From Verrucomicrobiota bacterium (lineage in GTDB: Bacteria > Verrucomicrobiota > Verrucomicrobiia > Limisphaerales > Palsa-1400): a DNA stretch of 64,000 nucleotides. The stretch's first letter is position 1. The number at the start of each line of letters is the position of its first letter. Positions 12,673 to 19,846 of the stretch are shown piece by piece. The DNA lies in NCBI GenBank assembly GCA_049510745.1, contig JBEKYR010000008.1, positions 32,001 through 96,000 on the forward strand, read 5' to 3'. Below the pieces are notes generated by a model. That model saw only the letters and a program-made list of their open reading frames with translations. It was not told the origin of the DNA and ran no database searches. The position numbers and the translations under genes were made by a program.

Positions 12673-12780
12673 GCGCTGCTGCCGAAGCAGCTGTCGGGCG
12701 AGTTGCGCGTGGCGGCGCAAATGCTACGGCAGGCAGGCGTGCCAGCCGCTTTACAAAAATTTGAGGAGGGAAAAACATGA
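12673..12780 (+). pseudogene. hsdS: type I restriction specificity subunit, C-terminal remnant
   Basis: reads ALLPKQLSGELRV (HsdS C-terminal LLPKLLSGELRV motif); the frame stops in an ATGA overlap with the rhuM start. Confidence 0.7.
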
Positions 12781-13802
12781 ACCAATCCTCCTCCCCTCTT
12801 CCCGCGCGCGCCGGGGGCAAGTTCGTGCTCTACACCGCGCCGGACGGGGCGGTGAAGGTGGAGGTGTTTTTCCGGGACGAAACGGTCTGGCTGACCCAAA
12901 AGGCGCTGGGGGAACTGTTCGGCGTTAAGCGCCCGGCCATCACAAAGCACTTGCTGAACATCTTCTCCACCGGGGAACTGGCCGAGGAATCAGTATGTTC
13001 CATTTTGGAACATACTGCCGGGGATGGAAAAACTTACTCCGCCAAATATTACAATCTCGATGCCATCATCGCCGTAGGCTACCGGGTGAACAGCTATCAG
13101 GCCACGCAGTTTCGCATCTGGGCCACGAAGACGCTGCGTGAGTTCATCGTCAAGGGTTTCGTGCTGGACGACGAACGGTTGAAACAAGGCAAGCAGGTTT
13201 TCGGCAAAGATTATTTCGATGAGTTGCTGGAGCGCATCCGGGAAATCCGGGCCAGCGAGCGGCGGTTTTACCAGAAGATCACGGACCTCTATGCGCTGGC
13301 GGTGGACTACGATCCGAACGCGCCGGTGACCCAGGGGTTTTTCGCCACGGTGCAAAACAAGCTGCATTGGGCCATCACCGGGCAGACGGCGGCGGAATTG
13401 ATTTACGCCACCGCCGACGCGACGGAGATTTACATGGGGCTGACGACTTGGAAGCACGCGCCGCGCGGAAAGATTTTGAAGTCCGACGTGACGGTGGCGA
13501 AAAATTACTTGAGCGAGGCGCACGTCAAGGAGTTGAACCGGATTGTTTCGGCGTATCTGGACCTGGCGGAAAACCGCGCCCAGCGGGGCATCGTCACACG
13601 GATGGCGGAATGGGTCACGTTTTTGAACCGCTTCCTGGAGTTGTCGAACTATCCGATTTTGCGGGACAAAGGCAAGGTCAGCACGCTGGAGGCGAAGCTC
13701 AAAGCGGAAGGCGAATACGAGGTCTATCGCCAGCGGCAGGACGCGGAATACATCTCGGACTTCGACCGGGAGATCAAACGCATCGAGGGAAAAAAACCGT
13801 GA
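12777..13802 (+). CDS. rhuM: RhuM-family protein
   Basis: ETVWLTQKALGELF, YYNLDAIIAVGYRVNS, ATQFRIWAT, ERIREIRASERRFYQK. Confidence 0.92.
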   Translation: MNQSSSPLPARAGGKFVLYTAPDGAVKVEVFFRDETVWLTQKALGELFGVKRPAITKHLLNIFSTGELAEESVCSILEHTAGDGKTYSAKYYNLDAIIAVGYRVNSYQATQFRIWATKTLREFIVKGFVLDDERLKQGKQVFGKDYFDELLERIREIRASERRFYQKITDLYALAVDYDPNAPVTQGFFATVQNKLHWAITGQTAAELIYATADATEIYMGLTTWKHAPRGKILKSDVTVAKNYLSEAHVKELNRIVSAYLDLAENRAQRGIVTRMAEWVTFLNRFLELSNYPILRDKGKVSTLEAKLKAEGEYEVYRQRQDAEYISDFDREIKRIEGKKP

Positions 13803-14023
13803 GCAACATCAACGAATCCGTCGTCGAAGAAGTTGCGCTCGGCTGGCTGAGAGGTTTCGGCTACGAAGTTTTGTCCGGGTTGGTGATTGCGCCGGGGGAG
13901 CCGGCGGCGGAACGTTCAGATTACAAGCAGGTTCTTCTTTTCGACCGGTTGCAAACGAAGCTGGAGGATTTGAATCCCGAATTAATATGCGCGGATGTGG
14001 CTGACATGGATAGTGCCGCGTGA
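13799..14023 (+). pseudogene. hsdR: type I restriction subunit R, N-terminal remnant
   Basis: GTGA overlap; INESVVEEVALGWLRGFGY...PGEPAAERSDYKQVLLFDRL...LNPEL resembles the HsdR N-terminus, then breaks off after about 62 aa. Confidence 0.78.
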
Positions 14024-14057: not shown

Positions 14058-16109
14058 TCAATTTGCGGCGGGCTTGGCGGCGGCGGGCGGCGCGGTCTGT
14101 TCCAAGGGCAGGGAAATGCGCACCAGGCCGGGGAAACCGACGCGCGGGGGCGGGATTTCCATTTTGCCCGAGTGGGTCTGGATGATCTTGCTGGTCACGG
14201 CCAACCCCAGCCCCAGGCCGACTTTGCGCGTGGTGAAAAACGGCTCGGAGGCCTTGCCCGCCGCCTCGGCGCTGAAGCCGGTGCCGCTGTCCTGCACTTC
14301 GATCTGCGCCCAGCGCGAGCCGCTCGAATCGGTTTCCGACCGGGTCCGCACCTGGACCTGGCAGGAAGAGGTGTTGGCCTGGAGGGCGTTGAGGATGATT
14401 TCGGCAAAGGCATGTTGCAGACCCAGGCGGTCGCAGGAAATGCTCAACGGTTCGCCCAAGGACTCGTACTGCAAGAGGACGGTGGCCGAGGAATGATAGG
14501 CCCGCGCCTCGCGGAAGGCCTCCTCAATTAATTGTTTGACAGGAACGGATTCCATCTGGCTGACGTGGTCGCGGGCCAGAAACCGCATCTGATCGACCAG
14601 CCGGCTGACCCGTTTGACGCTGTCTTCCATGGCCGCCGCCAGCGACTGCTGGAATTCCGGGTCCGCCCCGCGTTCGGGCAACAGTTGGTGGTGGGTGGAG
14701 AGCGGGACGACGGCGTTGCCAATCTCGTGCGCGAGCCGTTCGGCCATTTGTTGCACCAGGCGCAGATTGGCCGTCTCGATTTCCAAGTGGCGCAGGCGGT
14801 CTGTCGCCGTGCAATCTTCCACCACCATCAGCACCGCCGTGGGCGTGGGCGACTTTTCCTGGCGGAAGGGCGTGATGGCGATTTGGTAGGAGCGCTCGGC
14901 CTGCTCCGGCGGATGAAACTTGAACTCGGAGATGGGCTTGCCGGTTTTGAGCACTTCAAAAACCTTGCTGCCGACGACCTGGGGCAGGTCGTTGAAATCG
15001 AACGCCCCGGCCGGGCGGTCGGTTCGCGGGAAACAAGCCCGCGCCATCTCGTTGGCATGCAGCACGTTCAACTCGCGTCCGATGACCACGCACCCCGTTT
15101 TGATGTGGCGCAAGATGTCGAACATCATTTCGTGCCGGGCGGCCACCTGGTCGTGCCACCAGATGTTCTTGATGGCCAGACCCAACTGTTCGAGCAAATG
15201 AAAGATCAGCGCCAGTTCGTTATTGCCCATCGGCTCTCCCGTCACCCGTTCGTCGAACACCGCCACCCCGACGAGCGATTCGCGGTCCAGCACCGGGATG
15301 GCGATGCGCGCCCCCAGCAAATCAAATTCCCGCTGCATCAACGGGTCCCGTTCCACCTCTTCGCTCTCCCGCCGCAGCACGCGTCCGGTGCGAAAGACGT
15401 GGCCGCCCAGGCCCGTGTCCAGCGACAATTCCAGGTGTTCCAGCACGCCGCTGGAAAGGCCAATGGCGCACCCCGGATACAACCGCTCCGAGCGGCCCGC
15501 CTTCCCCGCATCCCCCGGCGCGCGCGGCGCCTGCCGGAGAAAAATCGCCGCGCGGTTGACCCCCAGGATTTCGCGCAACAGCAGCAGAAACTCCCTGAGC
15601 AGCGCCTCCGCGCAGAGGCTGTGGCAAAGGATGGACGAATAATTGCGCAGCAACTCCAGCATGCGGCCGGCCAGCAAATCCCCTTCCGGCGCCCGCGGCT
15701 TCTCCATCCGGGGCCGCGCCGGCGCGGCCGGGGCCGCTTCCGCCGGGAGCCGGGCGGCGAAGAGACGGTCGAGGAGGGAATTGAGCAGGCGGCCCCGCAC
15801 CGGCTTGCTTAAAATGTAATTGACTCCAAGCAGATAGGCCTCTTCCTCCCAGTTCCACTGCGCCTCCGACGCATAGAGGATCATCGGGCACAGCGGCAGC
15901 ACCCGCCGCAAACGCTCGATGCCGCGGATCGGTTCCACCGTCGTCAGGTCCGCGTCGAACACGCACGCGTCGATCGACGCGGCCGTCAGGCGCAATTCAT
16001 CCTCGCGCAGCTCGCTGTGCTCGATGACGCGATAGCGGGTGGTGTCGAGCGCCGCGCGGACGGCGGCGGCCAGGGCGGGATTGGGGGCGATGACCAGCAA
16101 GGTTTTCAT
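14058..16109 (-). CDS. cytoplasmic histidine kinase (receiver-like, GAF, PAS, HisKA, HATPase)
   Basis: N-terminal receiver-like fold (CVFDADL, ILSKP), LAHEIGN H-box, NALQA, DSGTG, PFFTT, GLGLGL. Confidence 0.88.
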   Translation of the reverse strand: MKTLLVIAPNPALAAAVRAALDTTRYRVIEHSELREDELRLTAASIDACVFDADLTTVEPIRGIERLRRVLPLCPMILYASEAQWNWEEEAYLLGVNYILSKPVRGRLLNSLLDRLFAARLPAEAAPAAPARPRMEKPRAPEGDLLAGRMLELLRNYSSILCHSLCAEALLREFLLLLREILGVNRAAIFLRQAPRAPGDAGKAGRSERLYPGCAIGLSSGVLEHLELSLDTGLGGHVFRTGRVLRRESEEVERDPLMQREFDLLGARIAIPVLDRESLVGVAVFDERVTGEPMGNNELALIFHLLEQLGLAIKNIWWHDQVAARHEMMFDILRHIKTGCVVIGRELNVLHANEMARACFPRTDRPAGAFDFNDLPQVVGSKVFEVLKTGKPISEFKFHPPEQAERSYQIAITPFRQEKSPTPTAVLMVVEDCTATDRLRHLEIETANLRLVQQMAERLAHEIGNAVVPLSTHHQLLPERGADPEFQQSLAAAMEDSVKRVSRLVDQMRFLARDHVSQMESVPVKQLIEEAFREARAYHSSATVLLQYESLGEPLSISCDRLGLQHAFAEIILNALQANTSSCQVQVRTRSETDSSGSRWAQIEVQDSGTGFSAEAAGKASEPFFTTRKVGLGLGLAVTSKIIQTHSGKMEIPPPRVGFPGLVRISLPLEQTAPPAAAKPAAN

Positions 16110-18295
16110 GCCGGGATCATGTTCAGCCGCGGGTTGGAGGAGGGCGGCGCCGGGGTGTGGTTGACGCTCAACTTGCTGGGCAAATCGACCTGGACGGTGG
16201 TGCCGGCTTTCTCCTTGCTGGCGATGCTCAGGCTGCCGCCGTGAAGGTGGGCAATGTTGCGCGCGATGGCCAAACCGAGACCGAAACCGCGCTTGCCGTC
16301 GCCCGTGTTCTTGGTCGTGAAGTAGGGCGTGAAGACGCGCTGCAAATTCTCGGCATTGATGCCTTCCCCATGATCAATCACCTTGAGCCGATGCCAGTCG
16401 CGGCTCAATTCGGTTTTGGGCAGGGGGGACAGTTCCACTTCAATTTGCGCGCCGGGGGGCGAGGCGTCGATGGCGTTGGAGAGGAGGTTGCAGATGAGCC
16501 GTTTGATCAAGACGGCGTCCATCTCAATGGCCACTCCGGTTTCGCCCCGGTAAATGATCTGGGCGCCCTTTCTTTCCGCGGCGGGCTGCACCAGCGACAT
16601 GGCGTCGCGCACCGTGGCATCCAGCAGGCCGGACTTGCCGTGCAACTTGGACGAGCGGGAGAAAAAGAGGGCTTCGTTGACGTAGCTGCGGACGGTTTCC
16701 AGGTTGCGCAGGCACATCGGCAGCAACTCGTCGATCGTCTCCTGGTTCAAGCGCGATTCCCGGAACAACTGCAGCAACGTCTGCATCGGGGTGAGCAAAT
16801 TGTTCAGGTCATGCGCCAGGCCGCGGGACATGCGCCCCAGCAGGTCCTGTTCGTGGACGACCTGCAATTGCTGGCGCAGGCGGATTTGGTTCAACAACAG
16901 GCCCAGGTTCGAGGCCAATTCGGCCAGCAAACGCAGGTCATGCGGGGTAAAGAGTTCCCCGCTGGCTTTGGGCCCCAGCAACATCATCCCGATCAGATCG
17001 TCACCGACAAAAAATGGAAAACAGAACTCCGGCTCGAATGAGCGCAATTGCTGGCGGGCCGCCCGCTGCAAGAGCGATTCGCTGTCCGTCTCATAAATGA
17101 GGTTGCAGGACAAAAACTTCGCCCGGGTTTGTTGGAAATAGCGAAAGACCGGCGAGTCCACCCGCAGGTCCGGCAGCGCGCTCTCCGCCTGCTGGGGACG
17201 CGAGTGGAAGAGCTTGAACCCCCGCGTCGTGTCGTCCAGGAGGATGATTTGGTAGCTGCGCATCTTCATCGTGCTGGCCAGCAATTCCTCCAGCTCCTGC
17301 AACAGATACTGCGGTTCGGGATACGAGCGCATCGTCTGGATCAACGCCTGCACGCGGGCGTGGTATTCAAACCGGTCGCCCAGTATCTGCCGCTCCAGTT
17401 TGTCGCTCCCGCGGCCAAAGAATTGGGGAAAGAAAAGCCCCGCCAGCAGCGCGCTGGCCAGCAGCACCACCATGTCCGCCCCGAACGAAAAGGTGGTGAA
17501 CTTGTCCGGCGCCAGGCGCGACACCAGCAACAACAGCAGGAAGCCCACCAGCATCATAAAGAGCAACCGCACCATTTGCGCCGCGAACCGGCTCAGGGTG
17601 ACATGGATGTCCAAAAGCCGGTGCTGCAGCACGCTGTAACCAATGATGACCACGTAAAACACCGCCGCCAAACTGCCCAGCGGATAAAACCGGATGTGCG
17701 TGAGCGGATAGGTGTCGTGACCCAAAATCGGCATCAAATCATTGGTCCCGAACACCCACAGCCCGACAATGGCCAGCAAGAGCGCCCGCAAGCGCGTGCG
17801 CTGCATCGGCGGCACCGCTTTTTGCTTGCGATACAACAGCAGCACCAGGGACGCCGTGATGAACACGTAAGTGTAACCGAAGAGGGGGAAGACCGGTCCG
17901 GGCACCGACCAATACCCGACGTTGAGCATCCGCACGCCGATGATGAATTTGTTGAAAAACAGGCTGATCGCAAATCCGATATGGATCAGATACAACGCCG
18001 GAATGACCCACTTCAGCCGCGCCTTCGCGATGACCGCGCACAAATGAAAGAGGGTCACCGGCATGAAAATCACGCCCAACTGCAGCACCTTGGCCCAGGC
18101 AAAGGCCTCCTCCTGGCTGATGTTCTGGCTCAAATGGAACACTCCCAGGTTCCAGAGCGTCACCGAGACGCCCCAGGCCAGATAAACCCGGTGCAACGTC
18201 GAACGATAATCCCGGGACAAGACCAGAACCGTCAATACGACGTTGAAGAGCGTCGCCGCCAGCGCCGTGATTCGGATGACATCGAGCGTGTTCAT
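16106..18295 (-). CDS. membrane histidine kinase with N-terminal 7TM-type sensor and GAF domain
   Basis: many N-terminal TM helices, LGPKASGELFTPHDL GAF, LAHDLNN H-box, DHGEG, PYFTTK, GFGLGL. Confidence 0.9.
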   Translation of the reverse strand: MNTLDVIRITALAATLFNVVLTVLVLSRDYRSTLHRVYLAWGVSVTLWNLGVFHLSQNISQEEAFAWAKVLQLGVIFMPVTLFHLCAVIAKARLKWVIPALYLIHIGFAISLFFNKFIIGVRMLNVGYWSVPGPVFPLFGYTYVFITASLVLLLYRKQKAVPPMQRTRLRALLLAIVGLWVFGTNDLMPILGHDTYPLTHIRFYPLGSLAAVFYVVIIGYSVLQHRLLDIHVTLSRFAAQMVRLLFMMLVGFLLLLLVSRLAPDKFTTFSFGADMVVLLASALLAGLFFPQFFGRGSDKLERQILGDRFEYHARVQALIQTMRSYPEPQYLLQELEELLASTMKMRSYQIILLDDTTRGFKLFHSRPQQAESALPDLRVDSPVFRYFQQTRAKFLSCNLIYETDSESLLQRAARQQLRSFEPEFCFPFFVGDDLIGMMLLGPKASGELFTPHDLRLLAELASNLGLLLNQIRLRQQLQVVHEQDLLGRMSRGLAHDLNNLLTPMQTLLQLFRESRLNQETIDELLPMCLRNLETVRSYVNEALFFSRSSKLHGKSGLLDATVRDAMSLVQPAAERKGAQIIYRGETGVAIEMDAVLIKRLICNLLSNAIDASPPGAQIEVELSPLPKTELSRDWHRLKVIDHGEGINAENLQRVFTPYFTTKNTGDGKRGFGLGLAIARNIAHLHGGSLSIASKEKAGTTVQVDLPSKLSVNHTPAPPSSNPRLNMIPA

Positions 18296-18301
18296 CGCCT
18301 T

Positions 18302-19555
18302 TCAATACTTCTTCAACACCAGGCACGCGTAACGCCCCCCAAATCCCGCGTTGAGGTTGACCGCGACCCGCACCGGGTAGGAGCGCGCCCCGCCGGCGAC
18401 GTAGTCCAGGTCGCAGCCCGGATCGGGTTTGTGCAAATTGATCGTCGGCGGTATCTCCTGGCGCGCGATGGCCAGCGCGCAAATCATCGTTTCAATCGCC
18501 CCGGAGGCGCCCATCAAGTGGCCGGTCACCGGCTTGGTCGCGCTCACCGCCAGCCGCCGGGCGTGCTCGCGGAAGACCTTTTTGATGGCGCGCGTCTCGA
18601 TCGGATCGTTCAGCGGCGTGGCCGAGCCGTGGGCGTTGATGTAGTCCACCTCGCTTGGATGGACCCGCGCGTCGCGCAGCGCCTTCTCCAGCGCCCGCGC
18701 GTAACCGATCCCGTCCGGATGCGGGTCGGTCGCGTGATACGCTTCGCAACTGCGCCCGTGGCCGGCGACTTCCGCGTAGATGCGCGCCCCGCGCCCCAGC
18801 GCGTGCGACAACTCCTCCAACACAAAAAACGCCGCCCCTTCTCCGAGCAGAAATCCGTCCCGTGTCCGGTCGAAGGGCCGCATCGCCTGGGCCGGTTCGC
18901 AGCTTTGCTCGGTCATGGCGCGGACGCGGCAAAAGCCGACGTGCAACATCTCCATCGTTTCTTCCGAGCCGCCCGCCACCGCGACATCGACGTCGTCGCT
19001 TTGGATCATGCGGAAGGCGTAGCCGATGGCATCGTTGCCGGAGGCGCAGCCCGAACAATAGGTGACGGCGTGGCCGTGGATGCCCAGGTGCAGGCTGATG
19101 GTGCTGCTGCCTTCCCCGCAATAGCCGGCCACCACATTGTAAGGATGCAAGGCGCGGAAATTGCCGTCGTTGGCCGTGTAACTGTCGCGCGCTTTGATGA
19201 TGCTTTCGGCGCCGCTGATGGTCGTGCCCTCCACCACACCGACGCGGTCAGGCTCCACGCCCTGAATGTCCAGGCCCGAGTCCCTGACCGCGAGCGTGGC
19301 CGCCGCCACCCCGTATTGGATTGTCAGGTCAAACCGGCCGGGCTTGCGGCTGGTGATGTAATCGGAGACATCGAAATCCTTGACCTCGGCCGCGATCTTG
19401 ACCGGCAGCTTGCTGGCGTCAAACCGGCTGACCGGCCCGGCGGCGCTGATCCCGTCGCGGACGTTACGCCAGAAGGTGTCCAAGTCTTTGCCGCTTGGGG
19501 CAATGACTCCCATCCCAGTAATCACGACGCGTCGCTCGGGCAGGTCGATGTTCAT
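18302..19555 (-). CDS. FabF-like beta-ketoacyl synthase (stand-alone)
   Basis: RRVVITGMG, catalytic SGCASG, INAHGSAT, KPVTGHLMGA, GFGG; no ACP or other fab genes nearby. Confidence 0.92.
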   Translation of the reverse strand: MNIDLPERRVVITGMGVIAPSGKDLDTFWRNVRDGISAAGPVSRFDASKLPVKIAAEVKDFDVSDYITSRKPGRFDLTIQYGVAAATLAVRDSGLDIQGVEPDRVGVVEGTTISGAESIIKARDSYTANDGNFRALHPYNVVAGYCGEGSSTISLHLGIHGHAVTYCSGCASGNDAIGYAFRMIQSDDVDVAVAGGSEETMEMLHVGFCRVRAMTEQSCEPAQAMRPFDRTRDGFLLGEGAAFFVLEELSHALGRGARIYAEVAGHGRSCEAYHATDPHPDGIGYARALEKALRDARVHPSEVDYINAHGSATPLNDPIETRAIKKVFREHARRLAVSATKPVTGHLMGASGAIETMICALAIARQEIPPTINLHKPDPGCDLDYVAGGARSYPVRVAVNLNAGFGGRYACLVLKKY

Positions 19556-19718
19556 GGAATTGGAATTTGTCTCAATTGCAGCGTGTCGAAAGTTCCAAGG
19601 ATTGTCCCGGGAGGTGAAATGTCGCGGGCACGGTTTGTCTCCCCGAGATGTTGATCGCACCTTGTCTGCGCCGCCCCAATCTCCATCTCGACACCATATA
19701 CGCCCCTTTTTCGGACTA

Positions 19719-19733
19719 TTGGCAACGTGCCAA
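19719..19733. promoter_or_regulatory. palindromic candidate regulator site upstream of the ketosynthase-kinase operon
   Basis: TTGGCA-acg-TGCCAA perfect inverted repeat about 165 nt upstream of the ATG. Confidence 0.35.
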
Positions 19734-19846
19734 CCGGAGTCATTGACTAATATCTAATTCATTGCGGGCAAACGTTCAACAGCTAATTGAGCGCCGCCGT
19801 CTTGCATTTTTTGCGGTGCCGGCCACAATAATTGGCCTCCCCGTTT

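Follow-up and report, generated by a model that had tools for sequence, protein, structure and literature searches.

The closest described precedent for the locus presented here is the PhcB-PhcS-PhcR system of Ralstonia, in which PhcR combines a receiver with a kinase domain (PMC8578825). Other described systems share single elements with it. The ketosynthase PpyS of Photorhabdus is FabH-derived and carries Cys-His-Asn (PMC4578411), the ICMT-type enzyme BpsB methylates lipids made by condensing enzymes (PMC9827899), and FadL imports long-chain acyl-homoserine lactones in rhizobia (PMC5977203). Here we analysed a 64,000-nt stretch of a Verrucomicrobiota genome (assembly GCA_049510745.1, contig JBEKYR010000008.1, positions 32,001 to 96,000), hereafter the window, in which a FabF-derived ketosynthase (KS) gene stands directly ahead of two histidine kinase genes, the first of which encodes a seven-transmembrane (7TM) protein with a HisKA_7TM domain. 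We propose, with a probability of about 0.58, that cells signal to one another through a lipid with the KS as the enzyme and the kinases as the receptor side; this system would resemble Ralstonia phc but use new enzymes and a new receptor. In what follows, G, L and C numbers denote genomes, fetched loci and contigs, respectively, G000 being the genome that carries C5 and C17.

Conservation of the ketosynthase–kinase locus

The three genes of the locus are the following:

18302-19555, minus strand: FabF-derived KS gene (417 aa, ATG at 19555), putative signal-forming enzyme; Cys170/His309/His346, VVEGT with Glu109 and Thr112 in place of the FabF V/I-GSGIGG, Tyr145-Gly147, LNAGFGG
16106-18295, minus strand: HisKA_7TM-GAF-HisKA-HATPase membrane kinase (729 aa, His495), putative receptor
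14058-16109, minus strand: second kinase, soluble, pseudo-receiver-GAF-PAS-HisKA-HATPase (683 aa, His461)

As an initial annotation of this DNA had reported, the KS gene ends 6 nt ahead of the 7TM kinase gene (gap 18296-18301), the two kinase genes overlap by ATGA at 16106-16109, and no gene for an acyl carrier protein (ACP), fabG or fabZ was present among the open reading frames (ORFs) called in the window. From the spacing we infer that the three genes are co-transcribed.

The linkage between the KS and the 7TM kinase is strongly conserved in dozens of Verrucomicrobia genomes. The 7TM kinase was matched in 27 of 41 related genomes, with 23 of 24 in the family of the window genome. Neighbourhood conservation, which the initial annotation had proposed as a check, holds: the gene immediately 5' of the 7TM kinase was the KS in 23/25 loci from relatives (the misses were G023 and one contig end), in 77/80 metagenome loci (the three misses had at most 32 nt of upstream sequence) and in 28/28 strong orthologues from 201 genomes of the order, counts that come from overlapping sample sets and from related genomes that are not independent. 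The order survey matched 56 of the 201 genomes and returned 30 loci, two of them weak and without a KS. In the window genome's family the flanks vary, and nothing beyond the three genes was conserved around the locus. G023 (83% complete) kept both kinases and no KS of this clade was found in it; it is possibly a receptor-only strain, in the manner of solo receptors. Outside Verrucomicrobiota, five single genomes were checked and two had a match belonging to the cassette. One cassette was found on a 3.3-kb contig of a metagenome-assembled genome labelled Terriglobales (L033), by transfer or mis-binning.

In other families of the order the operon is longer and runs in the order ICMT-family methyltransferase, KS, 7TM kinase, second kinase, FadL-family channel and REC-HisKA-HATPase protein (REC-kinase). 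Across 20 loci from these families, the KS was present in all 20 and ICMT in 10. In 17 of them the sequence extended far enough downstream to score FadL, which occurred in 11, and the REC-kinase, which occurred in 12. The ORF lists of the longer operons showed no ACP gene. In the window genome, orthologues of FadL and the REC-kinase are in tandem on C17, with 45-60% identity to the operon-linked copies. In the window genus this pair is preceded by a PilT-like ATPase gene and a small unnamed ORF (L219 6622-10566), an arrangement absent from two other genera checked. In two genomes of the order that lack the KS cassette (L227 5207-14402 and L228 6773-17112), FadL and SDR are accompanied by a methyltransferase of the 486-aa type, a hybrid kinase of the membrane and REC-kinases in a layout still nearer to phcBSR, and kinase genes similar to theirs lie just upstream of the KS in L306. 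In G037 (L226 11314-11997), a 227-aa kinase fragment with a GLAHDL motif resembling that of the 7TM kinase follows the REC-kinase and is possibly a remnant of a lost module.

The 7TM kinase scored 40.7 bits against PF16927 (HisKA_7TM; cut-off 28.6), being the sole PF16927 match in the genome, and hydropathy gave eight hydrophobic segments. The second kinase has the receiver-GAF-PAS architecture initially assigned to it, but its receiver is degenerate rather than canonical: it scored 26.8 bits against a Pfam cut-off of 30.2, and both the acidic pair after strand 1 and the switch Thr/Ser were absent from 15/15 aligned homologues, of which 12 kept the phospho-Asp and 13 the Lys. His461 was retained in 21/22 homologues. 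The degenerate receiver makes a simple in-operon phosphorelay through the second kinase, as first suggested, doubtful, and we do not retain it. The second kinase is frameshifted in G005 (L120 6569-8596) and the 7TM kinase is split in G027 (L123 8221-10376), which may reflect sequencing error or decay.

The ketosynthase clade and the enzymes of its slot

The initial annotation had named two findings that would speak against it, a KS that is the genome's only FabF and a kinase linkage that is not conserved; neither applies. The window genome holds three FabF-like genes, including the window KS, and a separate housekeeping fabF lies on C7 in a fabD-fabG-acpP-fabF operon, its product being 44.6% identical to the KS. 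In a phylogeny, likewise suggested there, the KS fell in a clade separate from housekeeping FabF (42 rows, support 100/100). It scored 466.4 bits against TIGR03150 (fabF), below the cut-off of 493.75, and exceeded that of the broad KAS II subfamily model NF005589. The structure predicted from 137 sequences (pLDDT 95; an earlier version from 13 sequences reached only 53) showed a thiolase fold with Cys-His-His and a TM-score of 0.96 to B. subtilis FabF (4ls7). The triad, Cys170, His309 and His346, is intact in the window KS and the C-terminal loop reads LNAGFGG, both as first described.

Alignment revealed the features of this clade, namely Glu109 and Thr111 in VVEGT, Tyr145 and Gly147. Glu at position 109 is near-invariant in the KS clade, with His in one order-level orthologue, and is absent from every FabF row of the genome scan. 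When aligned to B. subtilis FabF, GSGIGG becomes GTTISG and Thr112 replaces the Gly preceding Ile108, and the altered positions presumably line the acyl tunnel. Basic residues at positions 70, 74 and 212, which we take to be ACP docking sites, are largely retained. By its sequence, the KS is a member of a separate FabF-derived clade with a predicted remodelled acyl pocket and is not a housekeeping FabF. A 50%-cluster search with the KS returned mostly multi-domain polyketide synthases, and two of the best 150 stood out as belonging to the KS clade.

The third KS of the genome lies on C5 (L002, G000:C5:56000-68000) in a biosynthetic-looking cluster, where its partner resembles a chain-length factor. 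The cluster also has a small ORF like an ACP, an SDR, two genes resembling radical-SAM enzymes and one resembling a glycosyltransferase, and reads from the ORF translations as an uncharacterised lipid or polyketide cluster. A FabF on a record labelled Klebsiella (L081) groups with a Methylomirabilota FabF, suggesting that this record is mislabelled or a mixed assembly.

A different enzyme occupies the KS slot in another lineage. When 401 genomes of the phylum were searched with a profile of the second-kinase N-terminus, 20 matched, 18 of them strongly; 14 of these loci were newly fetched, and four had been fetched before. In 11 of the 14, a LuxD-like hydrolase-methyltransferase fusion was coupled to a 7TM-GAF kinase, and the second kinase and FadL divergently adjoined this pair; the remaining three comprised one with a divergent KS before the kinase and two with the second kinase alone. 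Ser121, Asp220 and His248 of the fusion, together with its S-adenosylmethionine (SAM) motif, were invariant in 10/10 aligned sequences, the triad being read as that of LuxD from weak matches to the LuxD model. Named homologues of the fusion are of Opitutaceae type, and it had no match in the window genome. In their tree, the receptors follow the type of enzyme (98/98 and 92/90), also within one family, and their membrane motifs differ. Since the same slot is filled by another lipid-releasing enzyme, the KS likely makes a lipid signal for the kinase. A GAF-containing protein of 450-480 aa follows the 7TM kinase in the LuxD-type loci (L265 13740-15080 and equivalents) and is absent from KS-type loci.

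Five of 41 genomes, including two of the window genome's family, have ICMT orthologues (57-93%). In the window, the region upstream of the KS contains:

19552-19743, minus strand: 63-codon leader ORF, eroded 5' relic of an ICMT-family methyltransferase gene
19719-19733: TTGGCA-N3-TGCCAA palindrome, in codons 4-9 of the relic ORF
19751-19779, minus strand: promoter-like TTGAAC-17-TAGATA, 7 nt 5' of the relic ATG

The TGA of the relic overlaps the ATG of the KS. Its first 27 bases match the start of the G003 ICMT gene at 20 positions, the score of the alignment of promoter and start to that gene was reached by 1/3000 shuffles and 21/6000 random genome pieces, and the G005 leader still matches ICMT with an E value of 2.9e-9. 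In 46 of 56 homologous upstream regions the relic frame runs without a stop for 50 codons or more, compared to 9/56 for each of the other frames, and the promoter-like pattern was matched in 25/56, although a generic promoter scan did not list this conserved site. Its position 7 nt before the relic ATG suggests a leaderless transcript, and the open frame suggests that the relic has been retained for translational coupling from it. As a side lesson, an eroded gene may be kept open as a coupling leader. A similar promoter-like motif stands directly ahead of the 7TM kinase in G023 (L119 7171-8060).

The palindrome, which the initial annotation had pointed out upstream of the KS, exists in the sequence. 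As an operator it was rejected: a count over ten contigs gave 0.93 perfect palindromes with 6-bp arms and spacers of 0-8 nt in every 250 nt, which makes it no more frequent than chance, this one lies within relic codons, a perfect copy was found in 1/56 homologous upstream regions, and the imperfect TTGGC-N5-GCCRA, present in 20/56, also occurs inside the coding start of the intact ICMT gene of a relative. It is thus probably not an operator. No RNA holder was listed for the stretch.

In many KS homologues of other families the nucleophile is Ser. The 20 Ser forms can be one clade (support 82), while another tree nests Cys forms among them, and repeated independent switching between Cys and Ser is unsupported, as one clade accommodates all 20. 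Among the 90 proteins with enough upstream DNA we counted Ser with ICMT 20 times, Ser alone once, Cys with ICMT four times and Cys alone 65 times (one case of Cys with ICMT, L214, was missed by the 48% threshold); with only two independent pairs, this association was not significant.

At the other end of the operon (12777-14023, plus strand), a RhuM-family gene (PF13310), followed by a 74-codon ORF that may resemble the start of a type I restriction subunit, converges on the kinases.

Proposed signalling and its alternatives

In the mechanism that we propose, the KS would take an acyl chain from the housekeeping ACP and release a short- or medium-chain fatty-acid derivative. By analogy with the Ser hydrolase and methyltransferase of the LuxD-like fusion, the enzymes of ICMT-bearing operons may first release the chain and would then methylate the product to an ester, while in the window genome's family, which has lost ICMT, an unmethylated product would be released. 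The Cys-His-His form of the KS could add a condensation step. FadL would give the product passage through the outer membrane, and its binding to the 7TM domain would alter the autophosphorylation of His495. The second kinase would serve as a co-kinase or partner and not as the phospho-acceptor, and the phosphate would go to the REC-kinase on C17. The initial proposal of a KS as signal synthase and a 7TM kinase as its receptor thus gains support from FadL, the methyltransferase and the LuxD-like enzyme of the slot, and loses the phosphorelay that it had drawn through the receiver of the second kinase.

A wider version of this proposal, which we put at somewhat less than even odds, is a lipid quorum-sensing system spread across Verrucomicrobiota. 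Its sensory genes (7TM-GAF kinase, pseudo-receiver kinase, FadL and REC-kinase) would stay the same and be served by interchangeable synthases, including a FabF-type chain-release enzyme with a Cys or Ser nucleophile acting with ICMT, and the dialect of the window genome's family would be unmethylated, its ICMT gene now being a coupling leader. If signalling of this kind is confirmed, it would provide the first ligand class for HisKA_7TM kinases, and in the module this orphan receptor domain already has a candidate source of its ligand. With its Ser or Cys nucleophile and Glu109, the FabF scaffold may perform a chemistry so far unrecognised, and the LuxD-like thioesterase-methyltransferase is a second candidate synthase family. 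The module is real and conserved and apparently undescribed: in the largely open-access literature searched, we found neither a Verrucomicrobiota signal system of this kind nor a description of the module, and HisKA_7TM is rarely mentioned there.

Several observations weigh against a dedicated signal synthase and its cognate sensor. Of the 28 order-level KS orthologues, 17 have a Ser nucleophile, 9 a Cys and one a Gly, with one unread, and two have lost a catalytic His. The KS-like gene of G044, with no Cys and with Gln instead of His309, adjoins the second kinase in a coupled arrangement even in the presence of a LuxD-like enzyme. At that locus (L217, G044:C102) one strand bears the dead-looking KS, the second kinase, a sigma-54 regulator and a REC-kinase, and the opposite strand bears the LuxD-like fusion ahead of the 7TM kinase, in a divergent layout. 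The KS of G085 retains Cys and has lost both His (Trp/Asn). Moreover, ICMT was lost from the window genome's family while the KS was retained, and FadL and the REC-kinase were matched in 33 and 35 of 41 genomes, including eight without a 7TM-kinase match at threshold. The distances of KS, second kinase and 7TM domain were all correlated, those of the KS with the second kinase at r 0.75 and with the 7TM domain at r 0.65, and the second-kinase and FadL trees split as the receptor tree does. As the KS tracks the second kinase at least as well as the 7TM kinase, no special co-evolution of enzyme and sensor is indicated, the pattern being indistinguishable from inheritance of the whole operon. Likewise, because the three trees divide alike, the swap between LuxD-like enzyme and KS was probably a single ancient exchange and not many. 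In G085 (L269 1583-10944), a REC-kinase, the KS, a membrane kinase, a GAF protein and the second kinase form one run.

With Ser in place of Cys in many homologues and a few that look dead, a sensing role for the KS is possible. The KS-fold protein could be a sensing or scaffold subunit that binds acyl-ACP, malonyl-ACP or an incoming lipid and tunes the kinases, with the methyltransferases as the true synthases. Decayed active sites in G044, G085 and G549 (the latter with Gly170 and Asp309), a dead-looking KS kept beside the second kinase of G044 in spite of the LuxD-like enzyme, distances that follow the second kinase best and a KS that survives the loss of ICMT would all agree with this. However, both kinases occur without a KS in the 11 LuxD-type loci and in G023, the window KS has an intact triad, the Ser codon is AGY in 20/20 Ser-form KSs examined, with no drift, and both His are kept in most orthologues, as for an enzyme; we therefore consider such a subunit unlikely. 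It is also conceivable that an envelope lipid is made or edited by the KS, alone or together with ICMT, and that the kinases monitor this lipid in the same cell, with no intercellular signal. Membrane-embedded sensor domains are able to read bilayer components. ICMT is weakly similar to the lipid A methyltransferase LmtA (27.8-30.1 bits, cut-off 325), and ICMT-type enzymes methylate membrane alkylpyrones and alkylresorcinols (PMC9827899). This explanation is rendered quite unlikely by the FadL-family outer-membrane channel that accompanies both versions of the module, by the putative receptor-only genome (G023) and by the finding that no lipid-transfer or envelope genes were conserved near the locus in the loci compared. 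Finally, a role as auxiliary elongase, with the kinases controlling how the KS sets the chain length of bulk fatty acids, would fit the FabF fold with its high TM-score to the B. subtilis enzyme, the NF005589 score and the triad kept intact in the window genome's family. The change of GSGIGG to GTTISG, the Tyr/Gly/Glu set at pocket positions, the Ser nucleophile in most other families and the thioesterase-methyltransferase that takes the slot in another lineage make it very unlikely.

Comparison with described systems

The window KS shares with housekeeping FabF (KAS II) the fold, Cys-His-His and about 45% identity to the genome's own FabF, but it differs in its separate clade, its altered pocket motifs, the lack of acpP/fabG neighbours and its score below the TIGR03150 cut-off. 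The 7TM-GAF-kinase architecture is also that of PrsK in the PrsK/PrsR pair of PEP-CTERM systems. PrsK was nevertheless ruled out as the identity of the 7TM kinase, which aligned to its model (TIGR02916) over residues 12-706 with 107 bits against a cut-off of 300, while the true PrsK (368 bits) and PrsR (606 bits) of the genome lie together on C7.

The PpyS (photopyrone) and DarB (dialkylresorcinol) signals of Photorhabdus, to whose enzymes the KS had initially been likened, also involve a stand-alone KS that lacks an ACP of its own, which in the window is a candidate signal synthase, and the clade-specific Glu109 recalls Glu105 of PpyS. Membership in their group was not supported, since those enzymes are FabH-type and the window KS has the FabF fold. 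A head-to-head KS of the PpyS/OleA type was rejected on this fold and on Cys-His-His versus Cys-His-Asn, and DarB (NF053539) on a score of 23.4 bits against a cut-off of 550. The clade differs from both in having Cys/Ser-His-His, and the sensor here would be a membrane kinase and not a LuxR solo. BpsA/BpsB and DquA/DquB likewise pair a condensing enzyme with an ICMT-family methyltransferase (PMC9827899). In contrast to these type III polyketide synthase systems, the condensing enzyme here is FabF-type and coupled to kinases and FadL, and ICMT is merely a relic in the window, intact only in relatives.

The likeness to Ralstonia phcBSRQ (3-OH fatty acid methyl esters) is one of layout and architecture. 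In both, lipid-handling and methyltransferase genes are coupled to a membrane histidine kinase, together with a soluble receiver-kinase protein that in PhcR has no DNA-binding domain (PMC8578825); proteins that are PhcR-like by architecture only, the REC-HisKA-HATPase ones, occur in the operons of relatives and on C17. A soluble SAM methyltransferase like PhcB was not found in the window, which holds only the ICMT relic, and no PhcA-like regulator is conserved nearby. The system here departs from that of Ralstonia in its candidate enzymes, which are either a LuxD-like fusion or a KS of FabF type together with a membrane methyltransferase of ICMT type, in a receptor that contains GAF and has its His at 495, compared with His230 in PhcS (PMC11960443), and in the addition of a pseudo-receiver kinase and FadL.

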